Source of the DNA: Bdellovibrionales bacterium
Lineage (GTDB): Bacteria > Bdellovibrionota > Bdellovibrionia > Bdellovibrionales > UBA1609
Direction of reading: 5' to 3'
DNA length: 64,000 nucleotides
NCBI GenBank assembly: GCA_965199825.1
Contig: OZ241329.1
Span: 1,120,001 to 1,184,000 of the forward strand
Made by a program: the position numbers and the translations under genes. The notes below the pieces were generated by a model. The model did not search any database, was not told where the DNA came from, and saw only the letters and a list, made by a program, of their open reading frames with translations. Below are positions 9,927 to 51,260 of the stretch, in pieces. Every line of letters begins with the position of its first letter. Positions within the stretch are counted from its first letter, which is position 1.

Positions 9927-11576
9927 ATGCCAATAGTCATCGTGATGTTCTTCGCGTTAAGTTCCTATGCAACAGTAAATATGAAAGATGCGGCGTACTC
10001 GGAGACGAGTAACGACATGAGCGTGCCTGGAGTCGGATACGACCTCAGAGTCCTCCGCACCTATAGTAGCCGATCTGTTTATAGCGGAATTTTTGGTTAT
10101 GGCCAGTGCTCTGACGGCGAAACTTCGCTTAAAGTAACACCAGAAAATTATCTTCAAGTGACAGAGTGTGGTGGTGGACAAAAGACTATGTACACCCCTC
10201 GCAAAGCCGATCCCGAAAAAATCGAAAGCACGATTAAGACGATCATGAAGGAAGTGCGTCAGAGAAAGCAAACCAATGATCAGCAATACTATTCGAATCT
10301 CGAAAAAGAATTGCATGAAAATGTGGTTTTACGCGAAGAATTGGGTCGCCAATTAGATCTTAAAGGAAAAGTCGAAGCAGGTGCGGTGTACTTTGCAAAT
10401 GGTCGTGAAAACGAAACCGTCGTTCTAAAAGACAACCAATACACTCGAACCATGGCCGATGGAACCTATCAAAAATTTGATATCGAAGGCCGCATGGCCA
10501 GCATGTACGACCGCAATGGCAACTACATTAAGCTCGAGTGGAAAAACGAAATGCTTTTATCCATGACCGATAACAGTGGTCGAAAGCTTGCGTTCAAATA
10601 TAACCCGACGACCAAAAAAGTTTCAGAAGTGGTGGGCCCCAACAATTTGAAATGTTCTTACGTCTATAAAGGCGAAGACATGATTTCAGCCACCAATGCG
10701 TGGAAGAACACATTTAAATACTCCTACGATGATCAACACAATATGACCCGCATCGATTTTCCCGACAACACTTACAAAGCGTTAACATTCAATAAAGAAA
10801 AAGATTGGGTCACCACCTTTCGCAATCGCAAAGGCTGTGTTGAAAGCTATGCCTATGATCCCGACAAGAGCGATCCGGTCAATCACTACACCTCAACCGT
10901 TACAAAAAAATGCGGTGGTGAAGTGACCAACCAAAGTACCTTTGAATTTTTATTTAAAAAACGGGCCGACGGAACAAACAAATACCTCGCCCGGCTTAAA
11001 TCCGACGTGAACGGTGATGTGACAGACACCACTTTCCATGAGCTTTTTGGTAAGCCAATTTCAATTGTTCACAACAAAGAGACCACCAATTACGCTTACT
11101 ACGATGATGGCCTGATCAAATCGAAAAAAGAAAAGCTGCGCGAAACCGATTTTCAATACAAAGACAAATGCCGCAAAGTTTCAAATGTCGAAATCAAATA
11201 TTTCGAAAAAGAAAAAGCGACCACTCCAAAGATCTTAAAAACAGCTTTTATTTATGACGAAGTAAAATGCAATTTGCTCGGCGCAAAAAATTCCGATGGC
11301 CTCCAAGTTAAACTCGAGTACGACACCAAAGGCCGAATTCATGTGATCGAAGATCAATCCAAAAAAACGGTGATGATCAAATACGAAGATCGTTTTGGAA
11401 AACCCGCAATCGTCTCGCGACCAGGCCTTGGCACAATCAAAGTCAGCTACAAAGCCGACGGTGAAATTGATAAAGTGGATAGCAAAGAAGGCCCAACAGT
11501 CGCAGTCCAAGTGGCCGGTGTTTTTAACAACATGCTCGATATGCTCGCCCCTGCCCAGGCCGAAACGAATTTATAA
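9927..11576 (+). CDS. Secreted YD/RHS-repeat protein (Bd0109-like)
   Basis: Signal peptide, LRTYSSRS..GIFGYG Rhs-like N-terminus, repeated YD/YxY units; directly after tadB. Confidence 0.8.
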   Translation: MPIVIVMFFALSSYATVNMKDAAYSETSNDMSVPGVGYDLRVLRTYSSRSVYSGIFGYGQCSDGETSLKVTPENYLQVTECGGGQKTMYTPRKADPEKIESTIKTIMKEVRQRKQTNDQQYYSNLEKELHENVVLREELGRQLDLKGKVEAGAVYFANGRENETVVLKDNQYTRTMADGTYQKFDIEGRMASMYDRNGNYIKLEWKNEMLLSMTDNSGRKLAFKYNPTTKKVSEVVGPNNLKCSYVYKGEDMISATNAWKNTFKYSYDDQHNMTRIDFPDNTYKALTFNKEKDWVTTFRNRKGCVESYAYDPDKSDPVNHYTSTVTKKCGGEVTNQSTFEFLFKKRADGTNKYLARLKSDVNGDVTDTTFHELFGKPISIVHNKETTNYAYYDDGLIKSKKEKLRETDFQYKDKCRKVSNVEIKYFEKEKATTPKILKTAFIYDEVKCNLLGAKNSDGLQVKLEYDTKGRIHVIEDQSKKTVMIKYEDRFGKPAIVSRPGLGTIKVSYKADGEIDKVDSKEGPTVAVQVAGVFNNMLDMLAPAQAETNL

Positions 11577-11586
11577 CGAGGTTATG

Positions 11587-11862
11587 ATGAAGTCGCTTTT
11601 TGTTTTTTTGCTTTTTTCAGGTTTTTGTTTTGCAGACGCACCAGCTTTAAAAGTGTTTCAAGGCGCGCCCTTAGAATCAAACGAAGATTCAAGATCCGAA
11701 GGCACCTTCGGCAATGACGGCGTATTTTGCGAAGACTGCTACGCCCGTTGGGCCGAGACGCAGTATAATATTCCACCTCAAGAGGCGATCAGACGCGCTC
11801 GCGATATCGCGGCGAACATCAAGAAAAACAACGGCGGTTCTTCTCAGTCTACTGATCATTAA
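11587..11862 (+). CDS. Small secreted CxxC protein, positional homologue of Bd0108 (Hit)
   Basis: GAGG RBS, signal peptide, FCEDC, polar tail; right after the YD-repeat gene (start 11584 or 11587). Confidence 0.6.
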   Translation: MKSLFVFLLFSGFCFADAPALKVFQGAPLESNEDSRSEGTFGNDGVFCEDCYARWAETQYNIPPQEAIRRARDIAANIKKNNGGSSQSTDH

Positions 11863-12593: not shown

Positions 12594-13427
12594 TCAATTA
12601 GCAAACACAATGCCGATCCCCCGGTGATGGGCACGATGATGACCCGAGCACAACAAAGTGAGATTTTCGATTTCATTCGTCCCACCGAGCGATATCGGTT
12701 GGATGTGATGAATATCGAGGTGCCGTTGCTGATCACATCGCTCGCCATTTTTATTGATGTGTGTGCATCGACTCTGATGAATGTGATAAACCTGGCGTTT
12801 CAACAGCGCGGTCATATTGGGCGACTTCGTCGTTGGGCACGATTTTTTTAATGGATCGTGTTTGACCAAAAATTGATCGACAAGCTCGTTGATAAGATCT
12901 TCCACCGTTGCAGCTTTTTTAAATTTTTGGCTTAACAGATCTTGGGCTCTTTTAAATGACACATATTTTTGTTCAGCCATTGAAAATGTGATTTGAACTC
13001 GCTCAGTTTCGCCCACCACACAAAATCGTGTCCGCTCGGGTAAAGCTTTTTCAGGATGAGCTTTGGCTATTTCTTTTTCTAAACTGCGCTTTGTTCCCTT
13101 CGCCTTATCAAACCAGTGTTGAGCATTCTCTTTTGTTAATATGCCGCTGATCCTGTTTGCTTTTGAAATTGAAATTTCGCCTGATGCGATTTGAGTTTTA
13201 AGTGCAGGAATCTCGATAAATTTTTTGGCAAGTTTATTAAAGATGCTCGCAAGCTCTTCAGATAAATGGAGCTGCTGGGTTGAGTATTCAAAAAGGGAAC
13301 GACATCCAAATTGATAATAGGTTTTATTGCGCCACACCTGCTCTAAAGCATTGAGCAAAAGCAATTCGGATTTGCGGTGATTTTCAGCCGCAACTACAGC
13401 GTTACGATGAACATTTAAATGATCCAT
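12594..13427 (-). CDS. HNH endonuclease with helical N-terminal domain (copy 1)
   Basis: RCTH...RC..RHLDIHHIQPISLGGTNEIENLTLLCSGHH; AGGAGA RBS before ATG 13427 (277 aa); paralogue of 50042..50848. Confidence 0.88.
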   Translation of the reverse strand: MDHLNVHRNAVVAAENHRKSELLLLNALEQVWRNKTYYQFGCRSLFEYSTQQLHLSEELASIFNKLAKKFIEIPALKTQIASGEISISKANRISGILTKENAQHWFDKAKGTKRSLEKEIAKAHPEKALPERTRFCVVGETERVQITFSMAEQKYVSFKRAQDLLSQKFKKAATVEDLINELVDQFLVKHDPLKKSCPTTKSPNMTALLKRQVYHIHQSRCTHINKNGERCDQQRHLDIHHIQPISLGGTNEIENLTLLCSGHHRAHHRGIGIVFAN

Positions 13428-13450
13428 AAATATCTCCTGTTTAGGAGAAG

Positions 13451-13459
13451 AGTGTAGCA
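13451..13459 (-). promoter_or_regulatory. Putative extended -10 promoter of HNH copy 1
   Basis: Minus strand TG-C-TACACT; the equivalent TG-T-TATATT is at the same place in copy 2. Confidence 0.4.
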
Positions 13460-13650
13460 CGGGTTTTTTACCAATGGTTTTGATGTGCTCCGAGATGATT
13501 TTTTAGACTCTGTTTTTGTTGTTATTTTTGGTCACAGAGGTGCGCCTCATCGACGATTATTAAAAACACATTCGATTGATCGAATTTTTTCGATACAGAG
13601 CACTCTGGTGCATCAAAAACTGCGTCAATCTATTTCGAGAAAATCAATGT

Positions 13651-13883
13651 GGGCACGATAATTTTGAATCTAACCAAAACTCCGGAGGTGTTCGGTTTTT
13701 GTTTAGATTAAAACACTGGGCATGAGAAAATTTAATTCTCAGCGGGCACGACAATCCTCAACCCGATTTGACAAGCGGGCACGATCATTCGTGAACTGTT
13801 TTAACCAGCGGGCACGACAATCGACACCGCCAATCGCTACTCAAACGGCCCCAATCTACCTTCGTTCATCCCGGCGGGCACGA
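13651..13883 (+). repeat. Array of short (GC)GGGCACGA direct repeats with variable spacers (array 1)
   Basis: GGGCACGA at 13651, 13744, 13777, 13810, 13876 (last spacings 33, 33, 66); variant GGGCATGA at 13718. Confidence 0.85.
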
Positions 13884-13995
13884 CAGAAAAACTGTCTCAA
13901 AACAAGACACTTCTCCTCGAGCCGCAATGTGCGCGAGCCTGTCTACAAATTGGTCATCGTCAGGAGCCAAATAGACCTACACCGCCGTTTCGCTT

Positions 13996-14506: not shown

Positions 14507-14884
14507 TTATTTCTCCTTTTTAAAAGCCGCGGATTCTAATGCGCGGATCACATCTTGTGATTGAAACGGTTTAACCACGTAACTACAACACCCAGCCTCA
14601 AGCGCACGAAGCACCATTGTTTCTTGATCAACGGTGGAGCATGCGATGATGCGACAAGTGGGGTTGAGTTTTAAAATCTCTACGGTCGCTTCGATTCCAC
14701 TTTTTTTGGGCATGACGATATCCATCAACACCACTTCTGCACCAGTCTCTCGCACAACTTGAACCGCTTGCTCTCCGTCCTCGGCTTCACCAACGATTTC
14801 CCACTCCGAACGCGACTCTAAAAGGTGCCTAAGCACATCCCTAATAAACGCAGCGTCATCGACCAAAACGAGTTTAATTCCCAT
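14507..14884 (-). CDS. Single-domain CheY-like response regulator
   Basis: LVDDAAFIR, LMDIVMP, VKPF; start moved to ATG 14884. Confidence 0.9.
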   Translation of the reverse strand: MGIKLVLVDDAAFIRDVLRHLLESRSEWEIVGEAEDGEQAVQVVRETGAEVVLMDIVMPKKSGIEATVEILKLNPTCRIIACSTVDQETMVLRALEAGCCSYVVKPFQSQDVIRALESAAFKKEK

Positions 14885-14934
14885 CTTCCCTATTATAGGG
14901 TCGGGGCTATCATTTTCCCAATGAGATTTTTTTA

Positions 14935-15624
14935 ATGGATCCCTTAACACTGATAGAAAAGCTGATCGATCAGCTCTCTGGCCTTTCGTCCACAACGGTA
15001 TATTTCACGATTGTTAGTGTTTTATTTATCTGTGGCCTTGGTATTCCTGTACCCGAAGATCTCACCCTCATTTCAGCCGGAGTGTTGGCCTCGCTCGAAA
15101 CCATTACGCTTCCGGGTGCAATCATCTCATGTTTTTTTGGTGTTCTCTTGGGCGATGCTTTACTTTTTAATTTGGGTCGACGTTACGGCAAGCGCGCTTT
15201 TCAATTGCCATTGATAAACAGAATCTTCACTCCCGATCGTGTGGCCGCAGCGGAAGATCGAATCAAAAACAATTCAAAATTTATTTGTTTTATCGCGCGC
15301 TTCTTACCAGGACTCAGAGCTCCGGTGTATCTTACCGCAGGAGTGATGGGAGTAAAACCAACCACATTTTATTTACTCGATGGAGCAGCCGCTCTCATTA
15401 GCGTCCCGGTGTGGGTGTATGGGGGATGGTATTTTGGTCAGGCTCTAGAAGATGCAATGGGATTTGCAAAACGCATGCAAGTATTTTTGCTGGTCTTTGT
15501 GGGAGGCTTTATGGCGTTTTATTTTTTGCTCAAATGGCGAAAAAAACAACAAACACTCACCGACGAGATGCTTTTAGCCCAAAAAAATCGCGATAAGAAA
15601 AATCCGAGCGACCCCAAGTATTGA
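14935..15624 (+). CDS. DedA family membrane protein
   Basis: GLGIPVPED, GDALLFNLGR, IARFLPGLR. Confidence 0.9.
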   Translation: MDPLTLIEKLIDQLSGLSSTTVYFTIVSVLFICGLGIPVPEDLTLISAGVLASLETITLPGAIISCFFGVLLGDALLFNLGRRYGKRAFQLPLINRIFTPDRVAAAEDRIKNNSKFICFIARFLPGLRAPVYLTAGVMGVKPTTFYLLDGAAALISVPVWVYGGWYFGQALEDAMGFAKRMQVFLLVFVGGFMAFYFLLKWRKKQQTLTDEMLLAQKNRDKKNPSDPKY

Positions 15625-18126: not shown

Positions 18127-18789
18127 CTAGCGTGTAGGAGCGAGCGACACAGAATTTGTAGAATAAGCCTTTGCCACTTTCTTAACACTCTTCACATAGG
18201 TATTTAAAAATTTAGGGTCATCTGCGTAAAGGGTTGGAACTGAATCACCATTTACTCTCAACTTTTCTAAAAACTGGTCATACTTTGTTAACTTCGTGGT
18301 GAGTGACTGATCTACATCCATATATGTGAAGGTTGATAAAAAAAGTGAAGCAAGCAGGTTTGGAATATAAGGTACACCGACAGCTCGGCCAACCATAACC
18401 AGAAGCATAAAGGTCTGTGTTTGGCTGGTCACATAAGTGACATAAGATCCCTCGAGAAAGGAACGCCACCAGCCTCGTGACAAACGTTTATGAAGGTCGG
18501 CAGCGACCGAATTTTTAAAAGCTTGGTGTTCCAATTCGGAAGCGAAAGTGATGCTTGCGGTAATTGCCTCACATTTAAGATCGCCATTGTTGATTTCACC
18601 ACTGAAAGCTTGCCCAATTTTTTGTGGTTCGTCAGAAGGCACCACGCAGACTTCAAACTTTGATGTTCCACCTTGTGCAGTCTCAACCAACACCTGCTGG
18701 GTTGTGAAACTCACTATGTAGGGTGTACGAACGATGTCGCTTTGGAATGCAAAGCTCTGAGCGAAAAATAACAAATTCATCAAAATCAT
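18127..18789 (-). CDS. Secreted paralogue family member 1
   Basis: MILMNLLFFAQSFAF signal; RTPY, FEVC, CEAIT; hydrophobic central segments; GAGGA RBS. Confidence 0.75.
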   Translation of the reverse strand: MILMNLLFFAQSFAFQSDIVRTPYIVSFTTQQVLVETAQGGTSKFEVCVVPSDEPQKIGQAFSGEINNGDLKCEAITASITFASELEHQAFKNSVAADLHKRLSRGWWRSFLEGSYVTYVTSQTQTFMLLVMVGRAVGVPYIPNLLASLFLSTFTYMDVDQSLTTKLTKYDQFLEKLRVNGDSVPTLYADDPKFLNTYVKSVKKVAKAYSTNSVSLAPTR

Positions 18790-18934
18790 AAATCCTCTTT
18801 TCTTAGTGCGATCGCTACCATGGTTAACGATCAAAAAAAAGCTCATGGCAAAGAAACCTTAGGCTTTTATAAACAATCAGATAGCACTAAATAAGATTTA
18901 CATGACATGCTACCGCATTCTGAAGTCCAAAAAA

Positions 18935-19579
18935 TTAATGGGCTATCGAAGGACCAGCAAATCGAGACACAGCTGTTTTTGAAACTTTTTGGACAATATC
19001 TTGATAGAGGTCGAAGAGATCAAAATCATCGGTATATAAAGTCACAGGTTGGCCGCCGTTCGATTTAATCATTTTCAAAAGCTGGATATATTTAAGAGCT
19101 CGCATGACAGGTGGAGGTGTAGTTACACCATAGAGAACACCTCCTACAGCGCCTGTGCCCAATTGCCAAAGCAAGGGCAATCCAGCTCGCGATGTGACGT
19201 AAGTGATGATAACGGCTGTCCCCACAGCACTCGAAATAAATTTATACGAATCGACAATCAAACTTGTCCATCTTCCACGAGATAAACGTTTGGTGAGTTC
19301 AGCCGATATCAACTTTCGAAAAGAATAATAATCAAAGTCAGATTTAAAACCTATGTCTTGAGTGATCGCTCGGCACAAGAGAGCTGGATCGTTGAGTTGT
19401 GCCCCAATTAAGATTGGATCAGCATCAGCAATTGGGCAGACCTCAAAGCGTGAGTTTCCGTTTTGTTCGGTTTCTACGAGTGCTTGTCCCAATGTTAAAT
19501 CAACAATGTAGGCCGTGCGAACCATCGCGCTTTGAAATCCGAAACTTTGGGCGACGAAAAGCAGTTTTAGTAAAATCAT
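18935..19579 (-). CDS. Secreted paralogue family member 2
   Basis: MILLKLLFVAQSFGF; RTAY, FEVC, CRAIT. Confidence 0.75.
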   Translation of the reverse strand: MILLKLLFVAQSFGFQSAMVRTAYIVDLTLGQALVETEQNGNSRFEVCPIADADPILIGAQLNDPALLCRAITQDIGFKSDFDYYSFRKLISAELTKRLSRGRWTSLIVDSYKFISSAVGTAVIITYVTSRAGLPLLWQLGTGAVGGVLYGVTTPPPVMRALKYIQLLKMIKSNGGQPVTLYTDDFDLFDLYQDIVQKVSKTAVSRFAGPSIAH

Positions 19580-19606
19580 AGTTCCTCGAAACAAAAATCA
19601 AATAGT

Positions 19607-20263
19607 TTAATGAAGAAATCCCGTGGGCACGCTCTCGAAATTTGGTGTCATGGACTGAGCTGCGGTTTCGTAAAGTTTCATCAATTTTGAATCATCAGCA
19701 AAGATAACCACAGGTTGATTCGCCAATTTTTTGATATTGATTTTCGCCTGTTTCAATTTGTTATCTCTCAAATCAAGAAGCCTGAAAGATTCATTGAGGC
19801 CTAAGTAGGCAATAGATAAAAAAGCAACTCCCGCAACCATTCCAGGTAATACAAAACCGGCGTATCCTCTAAAAAAGGAGTAGGCAGCTGATGCAGAAAA
19901 GAATGATCCAGGAACAAACGCAAGCGTAACGAACGTATCCTTAAGAATATCCCTATTGTTCATTACCTCAAGATGTCGAAGGAATTTTTCGGAAAATTGT
20001 TTTCGTATCGCCTGAAGTTCACCCTCCGAAGAAAAGCGGATCTCGTTGGTGATTGAGCGACAGGAAAGATCTGATCGATTTATGTTTTCAAGAGGAGTAT
20101 GGATATAGGAAGGCAATTTGCAAATTTCAAATCGTAGTCCATTTGTATTTACATTTTCGACAAAAGTTTCGCCAGTCAGAGAATTGACGATATAGGGCGT
20201 CCTCTGAACCGATGTTTCAAATCCAAAACTTTGGGCTAAAAAAACCAAATTTAATAAAATCAT
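19607..20263 (-). CDS. Secreted paralogue family member 3
   Basis: MILLNLVFLAQSFGF; RTPY, FEIC, CRSIT. Confidence 0.75.
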   Translation of the reverse strand: MILLNLVFLAQSFGFETSVQRTPYIVNSLTGETFVENVNTNGLRFEICKLPSYIHTPLENINRSDLSCRSITNEIRFSSEGELQAIRKQFSEKFLRHLEVMNNRDILKDTFVTLAFVPGSFFSASAAYSFFRGYAGFVLPGMVAGVAFLSIAYLGLNESFRLLDLRDNKLKQAKINIKKLANQPVVIFADDSKLMKLYETAAQSMTPNFESVPTGFLH

Positions 20264-20273
20264 AAGCTCTCTT

Positions 20274-20915
20274 TTAATTTTTACGAGGGGACAAAGTTGC
20301 CGCCCGTAAGTCTTGCGGGGTTACGTTCTTCACGGCTTTAACATAGACATCAATAAAACGAGGGACATCCGAAACAATCAGAGGAATTAGGCCTTCATTC
20401 AGCCCAACGGATCTGGTAAACTGATTATATTTAGTTATTCTATACAATGAATCGATAACATTTTTTGACACAACCGCAACCAAAGCACCCGAGCCGATAA
20501 TTAAGGATGGCCACACCGGGAGGCGACCTTTCTTTATCACAAATTCTAAAAGGGTGCCCGAGGCAAAAGCGCTAGAGTACAAGATATAGTTCTCGGCCAC
20601 TAAGTTCTTCCACCAACCTCGAGACATTTGTTTTTTTAGCTCGGTAGAGATTAAATATCTGTATGTCTGAAAGTCGGTTTCAGACTTCAATTCGAGGTCC
20701 GCAGTGATTGCTTCGCACGAGGTCAGGTTCTTGGTATCGACAGGAGAATCAAATTTGATTGTGACCATTTGACATTTTTCAAAGTGAATCGATCCTGCAT
20801 GGTTGACTTCAATTAAAGTTTCACCCGTCGTCGAATTGATAAAATAGGGCGTTCTCACCGCCTCAGATTCAAATGCAAAACTTTGGACCATAAACAATAA
20901 ATTCAATAGAATCAT
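20274..20915 (-). CDS. Secreted paralogue family member 4
   Basis: MILLNLLFMVQSFAF; RTPY, FEKC, CEAIT. Confidence 0.75.
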   Translation of the reverse strand: MILLNLLFMVQSFAFESEAVRTPYFINSTTGETLIEVNHAGSIHFEKCQMVTIKFDSPVDTKNLTSCEAITADLELKSETDFQTYRYLISTELKKQMSRGWWKNLVAENYILYSSAFASGTLLEFVIKKGRLPVWPSLIIGSGALVAVVSKNVIDSLYRITKYNQFTRSVGLNEGLIPLIVSDVPRFIDVYVKAVKNVTPQDLRAATLSPRKN

Positions 20916-20970
20916 AAAATCCTCTTTTAAAAAAATTTCGTACCATCGTTCACAATCAACAAAAAACTTT

Positions 20971-21636
20971 TTACCTTTTAGAAATCAGCTGATTCTTAAT
21001 GTATTCGCTCGTTGAGGTTTGAAGTGTATGTTCGTAAAGTCCAAAAAGGGCCTGCTTCTTGACCTGAATCCCAACACTCGGTTGTGTCCCGCTAGAAGAA
21101 CTCTCAGAGCTTCCATTTGTATTGTATTGATCGAATTCAGGATTCGAAAACAGTTGTTTGGCGCTGTAATAAGTCATGACACCTGCTCCAGCAATGGCAG
21201 AAAAAACTAACTCCATAGCGTCGTCCACAAATATCCACACCCATATGCTTGGATTTCTAGCAAGCGCGTAAACCGCTAGCCCACCCAGCGCCACTCCGCC
21301 CACCAACTTGTAGTAATTGATGTGGCCATAGGTTGCCTTGAGGCTTTCAAAATATTTTTTGTTTAAGTTAAATATAAAATCTCTGTGATTCGACTCAGAC
21401 TCAAATTTTAATTGGGGAGTTCTTACTTCACAAACGGTGGAGGCCTCGCTCAAAGATTGAACGGGGTCGGGCGATTTGACATCAAACTGACACATTTCAA
21501 ACATGTATGTGTCATCGCCTAAAGCGGTTTCGACGAAAGCAGATCCACTGCTCATGTTCATAATTAACGGGGTTCGATGAATTGTATTCTCGAACCCAAA
21601 ACTTTGAGCAAATAGGATTAGGTTTAACAGAATCAT
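20971..21636 (-). CDS. Secreted paralogue family member 5
   Basis: MILLNLILFAQSFGF; RTPL, FEMC, CEVRT. Confidence 0.75.
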   Translation of the reverse strand: MILLNLILFAQSFGFENTIHRTPLIMNMSSGSAFVETALGDDTYMFEMCQFDVKSPDPVQSLSEASTVCEVRTPQLKFESESNHRDFIFNLNKKYFESLKATYGHINYYKLVGGVALGGLAVYALARNPSIWVWIFVDDAMELVFSAIAGAGVMTYYSAKQLFSNPEFDQYNTNGSSESSSSGTQPSVGIQVKKQALFGLYEHTLQTSTSEYIKNQLISKR

Positions 21637-50041: not shown

Positions 50042-50848
50042 TCAATGTCGATGATGGGCACGATGATGACCCGAACACAAAATCGTCAGATTCTCGATTT
50101 CATCTGTACCACCCTGTGATTTTGGATGTTGATGATGGATATCAAGATGTCTTTGCTGCGTGCATCTTTCACCATTTTCATCGATGTGGGTACATTGGCC
50201 GTCATACTTTTGATGGAGCTTACGTTTGATGGTGATTTTCGAAGTGCTTTTGGGCGGGCACGATTTTTTGAGCGGATCCAATTTCTCAAGTAATAGCTGA
50301 GTGGCGTGATCGTGGACATCTTGAATAGAGGCGGCTCGTTTTAGTTTTTGACTTAAAAGATCTTGGGCTCTTTGAATCTCTTTAAATTTTTCTTCGCTCA
50401 CCGCATAGGTGATTTGGATCAGAATTGTTTCGCCCACCTGTTTGTATCGTGCCCGCTCGGGAATTGCTTTTTCGGGATGGGCTTTGGCGATTTGTTTTTC
50501 TAAATTTCTTTTTGTGCCCTTGGCATGGTCGCACCATTCGAGAACATTGTCTGAAGTGATGATACTTGCGATGCGGTTAATTTTAGAAACAGAAAGTTCG
50601 CCCGTTTCCATTTGGGTTTTAAGTTCAGGAACTTCAGTAAATTTCTTTGCGAGCTTATTAAAGATGCTTGCCAGTTCCTCTGACATTTTGAGCTGCTTGG
50701 TTGAATACTCAAAAAGCGAATGACAGCCAAATTTATAATAGCTTCTGTTGCGCCACACTTGCTCTAAAGCATTCAACAATTCCATTTCGGTTTTGCGATG
50801 ATTCTTTGCTGCGATCACTGCGGTTTCGTGGATTTTTTGGTGACTCAT
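50042..50848 (-). CDS. HNH endonuclease with helical N-terminal domain (copy 2)
   Basis: QCTH...RC..RHLDIHHQHPKSQGGTDEIENLTILCSGHH; AGGAGATATTT RBS shared with copy 1. Confidence 0.9.
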   Translation of the reverse strand: MSHQKIHETAVIAAKNHRKTEMELLNALEQVWRNRSYYKFGCHSLFEYSTKQLKMSEELASIFNKLAKKFTEVPELKTQMETGELSVSKINRIASIITSDNVLEWCDHAKGTKRNLEKQIAKAHPEKAIPERARYKQVGETILIQITYAVSEEKFKEIQRAQDLLSQKLKRAASIQDVHDHATQLLLEKLDPLKKSCPPKSTSKITIKRKLHQKYDGQCTHIDENGERCTQQRHLDIHHQHPKSQGGTDEIENLTILCSGHHRAHHRH

Positions 50849-51060
50849 TAAATATCTCCTATTTACTGAGTTAAATATAACATGAGTTTTTTTAAGAGCA
50901 TTTTTGATAGGACTCGACTGTTTGTGGAGATCAAGTTTTTGCTGGAGAGTTTGGCTTAAGGTGCGTTTGTGAAGTGCGTGTGTTTCAAAAAGAATCGGAT
51001 GTTTTCAAAAACAAATCCTTGGGCATTTTAAGACACCTAAATTTGCGTCAATATTTTTTT

Positions 51061-51260
51061 TGGGCGGGCACGATAATTTGTTTACCTCATCCGCGGTAGG
51101 CACGAACACTTATCTACCGCTATGGGCGGGCACGACGAATTATGAATCCATCCTGGGCGGGCACGATACTTTCGCAGCCTCATTGGGCGGGCACGACAAT
51201 CCACAACCCCCACTCGAAGCGGGAACGACAATGCACAACCCCCACTCGAAGCGGGCACGA
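51061..51260 (+). repeat. Array of seven short GGGCACGA-type direct repeats with variable spacers (array 2)
   Basis: Core at 51066, 51098 (AGGCACGA), 51128, 51159, 51189, 51221 (GGGAACGA), 51253; spacings 32, 30, 31, 30, 32, 32. Confidence 0.9.

Follow-up and report, generated by a model that had tools for sequence, protein, structure and literature searches.

The unit at 12594..13885 of the window, the stretch of 64,000 nucleotides of a Bdellovibrionales genome that was analysed as a whole, contains a repeat cluster that is likely the amplified self-site of a widespread HNH cassette with a predicted ParB-like head, and it is not a CRISPR-like system. We consider it probable that the locus is a selfish cassette of about 1.05 kb without a transposase, consisting of a site, a fixed 200-bp leader and an HNH gene that ends in the same site; the encoded protein would bind and cut near its own site, and repair would build the arrays and spread the cassette.

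The features of the locus are listed in Table 1. The original prediction had described the unit as the second copy of one found further on in the window (copy 2 in Table 1); the unit is real, but it is one of 28 places matching the HNH protein in the 2.84-Mb genome, 24 of which are full-length. All peptides that had been quoted for a 277-aa paralogue of copy 2 are present in the open reading frame (62% identity), and the predicted motif positions, five exact and one variant, were found again without change. The motif copies within the ORF and the leader of fixed length had gone unnoticed in the original prediction. Orientation of the array and its distance from the gene agree with copy 2 as claimed, with the first motif 223 bp from the ATG here and 217 bp in copy 2. 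The location one gene past the hit-like locus was likewise confirmed, the order being Tad gene, RHS gene, hit-like ORF, 222-aa orphan ORF and HNH gene. For the 222-aa orphan no match was found among 40 relatives with the query used. Elsewhere in the window, at 18127-21636 on the minus strand, tandem paralogues of 213-239 aa are located which show a DNA similarity of 61-74% and are spaced 650-790 bp apart.

Table 1. Features of the HNH locus, its neighbours and the other cassette copy of the window (positions are those of the window).
Feature	Position	Strand	Remarks
RHS gene (single-copy) and short secreted hit-like ORF	9927..11862	+	left syntenic anchor
Hit-like short secreted ORF after RHS gene	11584-11862	+	
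Orphan ORF with signal peptide, 222 aa	11864-12532	-	
HNH gene, 277 aa	12594..13427	-	three predicted domains
Motif copy in last codons of HNH gene (H-R-A-H)	12629..12636	+	
Motif copy in linker codons of HNH gene (S-C-P)	12835..12842	+	
Third internal motif copy, E-R-A-R codons	13026..13033	-	degenerate (7/8); exact in most paralogues
Ribosome-binding site AGGAG	13434..13438	-	from sequence
Extended -10-like box (TG-n-TACACT)	13451..13459	-	consensus likeness only
Leader spacer of fixed length, 166 bp	13457..13622	-	
-35-like box TTGACG	13623..13628	-	consensus likeness
Array	13649..13885	+	five exact and one variant motif, C/A-rich spacers
Exact GGGCACGA in array	13651, 13744, 13777, 13810, 13876	+	
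Variant motif GGGCATGA in array	13718	+	
Module common to array at C1:565.2 kb	13668..13702	+	35 nt, 91%, E 2e-6
Recurrent near-palindromic word TCCGGAGGTG	13681-13690		within the module 13668..13702
TACCTTCGT, separate word dispersed genome-wide	13857..13865	+	within the 66-bp unit of the array
ORF with signal peptide beyond array, 61 aa	14037-14221	+	
Response regulator	14507..14995	-	right syntenic anchor
Cassette copy 2	50042..51260	-	gene 50042-50848, same leader, array 51066-51260

The word GGGCACGA

No 8-mer of the genome is more strongly over-represented than GGGCACGA, which occurs 522 times compared to 55 expected. Upstream of HNH genes 152 copies are located, 71 lie within these genes, 9 downstream of them and 75 are isolated, while the remainder is found mostly in 10 orphan arrays. 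The window contains 16 exact copies (1.5 expected), a number attained by none of 100 shuffled sequences, and 15 of these are located in or beside the two HNH loci. An upstream GGGCACGA is present in 27 of the 28 copies, and none was found in reversed orientation within 700 bp.

The codons that spell the terminal motif are fixed (H264 CAT in 24 of 24 copies, R265 CGT in 24 of 24, A266 GCC in 23 of 24); at other conserved four- and sixfold degenerate sites the mean share of the top codon is 0.52. Furthermore, in another clade the linker motif is found 20 bp further along; there it is reversed and read in a different frame (A-G-T). Frozen motif codons together with a linker copy in two frames and orientations show that selection acts on the DNA and not on the protein. 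A comparison of the motif with its neighbouring DNA had been proposed as a test of the prediction, and the frozen codons show that GGGCACGA is the more conserved of the two. The isolated copies, 68 of which are genic, compare with about 55 expected, so the word is not avoided, and a genome-wide motif of the Chi, KOPS or uptake type was rejected since single GGGCACGA sites are near background. Judged from the lineage-specific words of parS format described below and from the ParB-type head of the protein, GGGCACGA is likely the binding site of its own ParB-like protein and would represent one parS-like half-site.

Only one of the 28 copies and few motifs are located in C1:1.65-2.5 Mb, the third of the chromosome on the terminus side, where 8.6 copies would be expected, in an interval that was picked after the fact; the parS pair of this genome is located at 964 kb. 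The genome also contains 107 copies of a different over-represented word, TACCTTCGT(T)C(A)C. These are single copies distributed evenly and without replichore bias, located mostly in genes and there in several frames. In the window the word is found at 1360, 13857, 53615 and 60677, and it lies within 150 bp of an HNH motif in 7 cases compared to 1.5 expected. This word is a candidate site of some chromosome-binding protein.

The leader and its split promoter-like boxes

All 25 copies with a full leader (that is, all but the copies 799110, 805042 and 1029842) carry TTGAC 198-204 bp before the ATG. The spacing between this -35-like box and the extended -10-like box, which is close to the ribosome-binding site, is 165-168 bp (167 bp in 15 of 25) and not 17 bp; once 150 bp are subtracted, its spread corresponds to that of an ordinary 17-bp spacer. 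Genome-wide the split pattern was found 24 times, in each case in front of an HNH gene. A search of the strand of the HNH gene revealed no sigma-70 pair of the normal kind. The spacer diverges about as fast as silent sites and is nearly free of indels, with T-tracts in its first half and A-tracts in its second half. In relatives, Myxococcota included, the boxes are spaced 164-167, 172-173 or 181-184 bp apart; the pattern does not fit in G034 and in part of one other lineage. We infer that the leader would be a split promoter, active only with about 150 bp looped or wrapped out. No precedent for such a 17+150 geometry was found in the literature searched, subscription papers being outside this search.

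A nucleosome-like periodicity of 10.5 bp was not seen in the leader (two near-duplicate leaders were left out of the skew and periodicity profiles), and the histone-fold families PF00808 and PF09123 were not found in G000 with the queries used. A guide RNA in the leader was rejected, as there is no fold (z about -0.3), no RNAalifold structure and no Rfam match. The match of leaders to their own flanks (8.7 nt) is like that to other flanks (8.9 nt), and matches to the genome are at chance level. RNA run X5 yielded poly-T artefacts only. In the sigma-54 consensus the GG of the -24 box is followed, ten bases later, by GC at -12. A sigma-54 box in the array units was rejected, since G is found in 7/101 and C in 22/101 units at the -12 positions and the -12 element is thus absent. 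In the divergent pair 799110 and 805042, which has no full leader, the motif is located 132-134 bp from the ATG and the recognition helix is changed.

Arrays

The intervals of the array at 13649..13885 are 67, 26, 33, 33 and 66 bp long, and the 66-bp unit shows no motif remnant at its midpoint. The 33-bp period of the original prediction applies to two of the five intervals only. Throughout the genome the arrays contain 344 units of 16-127 bp, 102 of which are distinct, and the lengths of the distinct units have modes at 16-20 bp (25 units) and 30-33 bp (16 of 102) with a tail up to 127 bp. Helical phasing was rejected, as the Rayleigh test for 10.5 bp gave P 0.16 and the signal at about 12 bp is due to the two length modes. 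The claim that both motif and spacing are under selection was therefore upheld for the motif, with its frozen codons, but not for the 33-bp spacing, where lengths are bimodal and phasing is missing.

Arrays range from 1 to 39 units, and many are perfect minisatellites of 16-20 bp. For 80% of 339 units a sister of at least 75% identity is present in the same array. In polar arrays the diverged units are gene-proximal and the identical ones distal, and the closest gene copies share their arrays over the first one or two units only. A search of 13640-13930 against 50,697 phage records at E 10 gave no match, in a collection that is unlikely to hold phages of this lineage. With these own-array sisters and no phage match, the suggestion that units arise by duplication and drift and not by capture was supported, and the array repeats have likely grown by local duplication rather than by CRISPR-like acquisition of foreign DNA. 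The similarity that had been noted between the spacer at 13752-13776 and the terminal spacers of copy 2 (19/25) is at the level expected from shuffled spacer middles (P = 0.12). A different unit, 13668-13702, is genuinely common to this array and to one located 568 kb away (91% over 35 nt). The supposition that the array is an obligatory part of the unit was not supported, since in 3 of 27 copies just one motif is located upstream and the G036 subfamily described below is array-free. It is an outgrowth, and the conserved parts are site, leader and gene. Two sister copies have a homologous array after the stop codon as well (C1:534305-534540 and 575425-575502).

Every long intergenic minisatellite among the top over-represented words listed is built on GGGCACGA. 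A mirror GC skew is centred on all ten orphan arrays, with a mean of 0.41 compared to 0.008 +/- 0.205 in 306 control intergenic regions, and 0 of 20000 random draws were as strong. Its sign is such that each strand running toward the array is G/T-rich; at the locus studied here, the plus strand is C/A-rich distally and G/T-rich toward the gene. That single-stranded 3' tails are subject to deamination while a break is repaired is established chemistry. The skew at the orphan arrays is likely a repair scar, having the sign expected from deamination of such tails. No mirror skew was found at single GGGCACGA sites (57 tested) or at non-coding palindromes of relatives (15 tested, mean -0.12), so that a putative cutting scar is seen only at the arrays of this genome.

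A near-palindromic word of the TCCGGCGGTG type is located near motifs 16 times compared to 1.2 expected, one of these places being 13681-13690 of the window, within a module of about 50 bp that is found in HNH-linked as well as orphan arrays. This word may be read by a second DNA-binding domain, and the presence of the module in both kinds of arrays suggests that orphan arrays could be relics of lost cassettes.

The HNH protein

The model of the 277-aa protein has a pLDDT of 87. Residues ~16-125 are predicted to fold into a DNA-binding domain of the ParB/KorB type, with a Z-score of 7.1 to KorB (3.1 A, 97 residues), 6.8 to ParB-parS (10.3 A, 112 residues) and 6.5 to Spo0J (2.8 A, 91 residues), and these three are the best non-HNH fold matches of the protein. 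Residues ~141-198 resemble a ribbon-helix-helix (RHH) dimer domain (144-198 against RHH proteins, Z 4.2-4.5), and a zinc-binding HNH domain is located at the C-terminus (205-270). The fold Z-scores are moderate and all below 8, a range which the tool calls common; a Foldseek search with the model gave no match at E<=0.001, and the HTH_ParB profile matches 17 of 118 relatives at E<=0.05. As the ParB-like alignment begins at residue 16, there is no space for an N-terminal CTP-binding domain, and the ParB N-terminal Pfam domain was found in none of 118 family members. In domain searches, the cassette protein matched no transposase family. Residue 68 (K or R) appears to track the inner bases of the half-site, in two or three lineages only.

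The protein is predicted to form a dimer. Residues 1-200 obtained a dimer score of 0.72 compared to 0.00 for the best control. Of 30 solved pairs 20 attain the mark, compared to 1 of 23 single chains; resemblance to solved RHH dimers may help the score. The runs agree in 96% of contacts with a pLDDT of at least 84, and strand 144-150 pairs across the chains, which supports the prediction. The HNH nuclease residues are intact and under purifying selection: H240, H241, N255, H264 and H268 are invariant in 118 sequences, and dN/dS between HNH copies is 0.07-0.18 (9 pairs). Four broken copies (internal stop, truncation, internal deletion and fragment) are left out of the codon, tree and dN/dS counts.

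Relatives and their words

The HNH protein is matched in 21 of 41 genomes of the order, in several of them 20-39 times, and the 25-39 matches each in G036, G013 and G015 represent independent lineage-specific expansions. Named relatives belong to Bdellovibrionales and, further off, to Myxococcota and Actinomycetota; the family profile finds 4,078 clusters at 1e-30. Viral relatives could not be confirmed and a metagenome protein scan found no relatives, while a metagenome scan for the motif pair gave 74 loci, mostly of high GC, one of them with a weak HNH-only match. The G036 subfamily (39% identity) has the same architecture, the leader and often a linker palindrome, and no arrays. In other lineages different words are found at similar positions, beside the leader, within the linker codons or directly after the stop codon, and within one genome several unrelated subfamilies occur side by side, each with a different word.

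The surroundings of 74 related genes (113 kb; loci that were shorter than 750 bp or had mis-called starts are excluded) contain 34 perfect 16-bp palindromes at 24 loci. Their density of 0.30 per kb is 13 times that in this genome (0.023 per kb). The other 50 of the 74 loci contain no perfect palindrome, so a self-palindrome is not universal or is often degenerate. An 8+8 palindromic form is given for parS and NBS in the available part of PMC7383237, and the palindromes of the relatives share this form. The half-site of G010 agrees with the word of this genome at 7 of 8 positions. A word of at least 14 bp is common to the upstream and the gene or downstream parts at 13 of 63 loci compared to 2 of 369 swapped controls, and at one G036 locus (L015) the upstream palindrome has the same central variant as the linker copy of its own gene.

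One Myxococcota relative (L084, from a MAG) is fused to a RuvA C-terminal domain, which hints that host branch migration may be exploited. This member carries its palindrome three times, in the gene and after it. REP-like inverted repeats of ~45-120 bp adjoin many HNH genes (G015 L032-L041; G036 L002, L014, L018, L021 and L023). Simple tandem repeats of 4-7 bp flank related genes at L004, L008, L024, L029, L038, L053, L057 and L058; they may fit repeat-generating repair and may include assembly artefacts.

Dispersal of the cassette

Close pairs of copies are 90-96% identical, and their similarity begins at the first motif upstream and stops 5-15 bp after the terminal one; thus, the unit is bounded by direct copies of GGGCACGA. 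A target-site duplication above control was not found (5.04 vs 5.00). The RHS gene to the left of the locus is present in 40 of 41 genomes, and in 20 relatives no HNH gene or array is located within 6 kb downstream of the RHS orthologue. The response regulator is kept next to this orthologue in 16 of the 20, and in 13 of those 16 the gap between the two genes is 844-1365 bp compared to 2955 bp here. Cassette and orphan gene sit inside an otherwise conserved interval. Since the HNH gene is absent at the locus in the 20 relatives, the cassette likely arrived there by insertion. The idea that the unit has moved is thereby supported, and the search for empty sites in related genomes that had been recommended found the interval empty in 20 of 20 relatives at this locus.

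A second strain (run X3, patchy cover) showed no within-species empty site: it has the 3' end of the HNH gene at this locus and also the copy located at 639 kb with its own flank, in a cover that excludes the array at both window loci. Close copies are mosaics; in one pair identity is restricted to the last 480 nt. The same sharp ends could therefore result from gene conversion between old copies. The mosaic copies and the two loci occupied in the second strain weigh against recent movement.

Comparison with known systems

The cassette belongs to none of the families tested. The REP13E12/DUF222-HNH family of Actinomycetota (PF02720 plus PF01844) is likewise a multicopy stand-alone gene with a helical N-terminus and a C-terminal HNH domain, and the cassette shares with it the C-terminal HNH domain, the multicopy and dispersed occurrence and the lack of a transposase. 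Myxococcota relatives in which the split leader is likewise found match DUF222 over its first 115 positions (E 7e-7 to 0.005). Two of the 118 closer relatives match DUF222 weakly, one Myxococcota relative is above the cut-off with the N-terminal part, and for P0001 and P0002 there is no match to PF02720 at E<=1, P0001 being much shorter. The cassette family is remote kin of DUF222-HNH and not a member. The TTGAC leader was not seen before two Kribbella DUF222 genes that were viewed. The family is listed solely as a repetitive element in the available part of PMC10589994, and no description of self-sites, split boxes or arrays of DUF222-HNH genes was found in the literature searched, which did not extend to subscription papers.

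The likeness to ParB, Spo0J, KorB and Noc consists of the predicted DNA-binding fold, the predicted dimer and the 16-bp palindromes of parS/NBS form in relatives. Unlike ParB and Noc, the cassette has neither an N-terminal CTPase domain nor a ParA partner but fused RHH and HNH domains, and its sites are located in and around its own gene, in this genome as direct-repeat half-sites. Free-standing HNH homing endonucleases are selfish nuclease genes without a transposase that home to an allelic site and do not contain a target of their own. The cassette resembles them as a likely selfish nuclease gene without a transposase that would spread by host repair, but it is dispersed over unrelated loci and keeps several copies of its own site.

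An HNH gene beside a short repeat array is also known from TIGR-TasH, CRISPR and IscB/OMEGA systems. Here, by contrast, no Nop or RuvC domain and no structured RNA was found, and the units are self-duplicated; Nop is absent from the fold matches, the non-HNH part being taken by the ParB-like and RHH-like folds. The resemblance to IscB is limited to the HNH domain (NCBIfam IscB 30 bits vs a cut-off of 175), and IscB/OMEGA and HEARO were rejected, as there is no RuvC and no structured upstream RNA (no Rfam match, and the leader fold as above). A CRISPR array was rejected because there is no constant repeat with unique spacers of near-constant length. TIGR arrays have a 36-nt dual-repeat unit according to the available part of PMC12045711, and TIGR-Tas was rejected with one motif type and units of 16-127 bp here. 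Insertion sequences (DDE, HUH, serine and IS110) were rejected since there is neither a transposase nor a target-site duplication above control. A nickase together with a polymerase (Bst polymerase, N.BspD6I and others) generates repeats of the nickase's own site in vitro, as described in the available part of PMC10520511. That synthesis is template-independent, whereas here the arrays are genomic and the nuclease is putative, and the comparison is an analogy only.

Proposed mechanism and alternatives

In the mechanism we propose, a dimer with ParB-type heads would bind GGGCACGA as a parS-like half-site, and dimers at the sites in and before the gene would span or cover it and thereby control it, the split -35/-10 pair working once about 150 bp are looped or wrapped out. 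Cutting near the site followed by host repair would duplicate the site into arrays. Movement would proceed through host recombination between the terminal sites, which would rarely copy the cassette elsewhere. A broader proposal, which we put forward only tentatively and regard as rather doubtful, is that these cassettes form a new class of prokaryotic mobile elements with thousands of protein clusters in Bdellovibrionota and Myxococcota, in which a ParB-derived head with RHH and HNH domains replaces the transposase, and which would have self-marks, a split sigma-70 promoter looped by about 150 bp, nick-seeded arrays and copying by host recombination.

It might also be that the word is an autoregulatory operator only, that the arrays are products of neutral slippage between two operators that happened to be neighbours and that old copies, once spread by a machinery now lost, have been homogenised by gene conversion. 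The mosaic copies, the same occupancy at the two loci checked in strain X3, the variation of array length between 1 and 39 units, the absence of arrays in G036, and the lack of a target-site duplication would all agree with this explanation. It is nevertheless unlikely, though the most serious competitor, because it leaves unexplained the mirror skew at 10 of 10 orphan arrays, the fact that all listed long intergenic minisatellites are built on GGGCACGA and the catalytic residues invariant in 118 sequences, and because the lineage-specific expansions in G036, G013 and G015 (25-39 matches) point to an activity of the gene itself. The self-site cassette is preferred here.

Domestication by the host, with ParB-like dimers organising or protecting the origin half of the chromosome or with the protein acting as an addiction or defence nuclease, is improbable. 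The depletion of copies in 1.65-2.5 Mb (1 of 28 compared to 8.6 expected, post hoc), in the half with the skew terminus, the parS at 964 kb and the purifying selection on the HNH gene are consistent with it, but 20 of 40 relatives have no match to this query, cassette positions are not conserved, the 277-aa model lacks the ParB CTPase domain and unrelated subfamilies with different words share one genome. A guide array of the CRISPR or TIGR kind, in which captured or programmed spacers direct the HNH protein, is suggested by the repeat-spacer appearance here and at copy 2, by the 16 of 102 distinct units of 30-33 bp and by several long arrays with one end more diverged. We regard it as highly improbable, since unit lengths range from 16 to 127 bp, many arrays consist of perfect minisatellites of 16-20 bp, a sister is present within the same array for 80% of the units, and the most diverged units are located at the gene-proximal end. 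In addition, there is no match to the 50,697 phage records or to Rfam, the leader is unfolded (z about -0.3) and does not match its own flanks, the repeat is also frozen within the ORF, no Nop or RuvC domain was found and relatives use single palindromes.

Significance

Multicopy HNH genes of the DUF222-like kind are common and unexplained, and this genome offers an anatomy that can be tested: a candidate site of parS format that varies between lineages, a promoter-like pair 17+150 bp apart across two phyla, and a repair-like scar at the arrays. If the proposed explanation is true, these cassettes would represent mobility without a transposase and a source of bacterial minisatellites, and they would amount to a naturally occurring collection of compact sequence-specific nucleases, each accompanied by its site.
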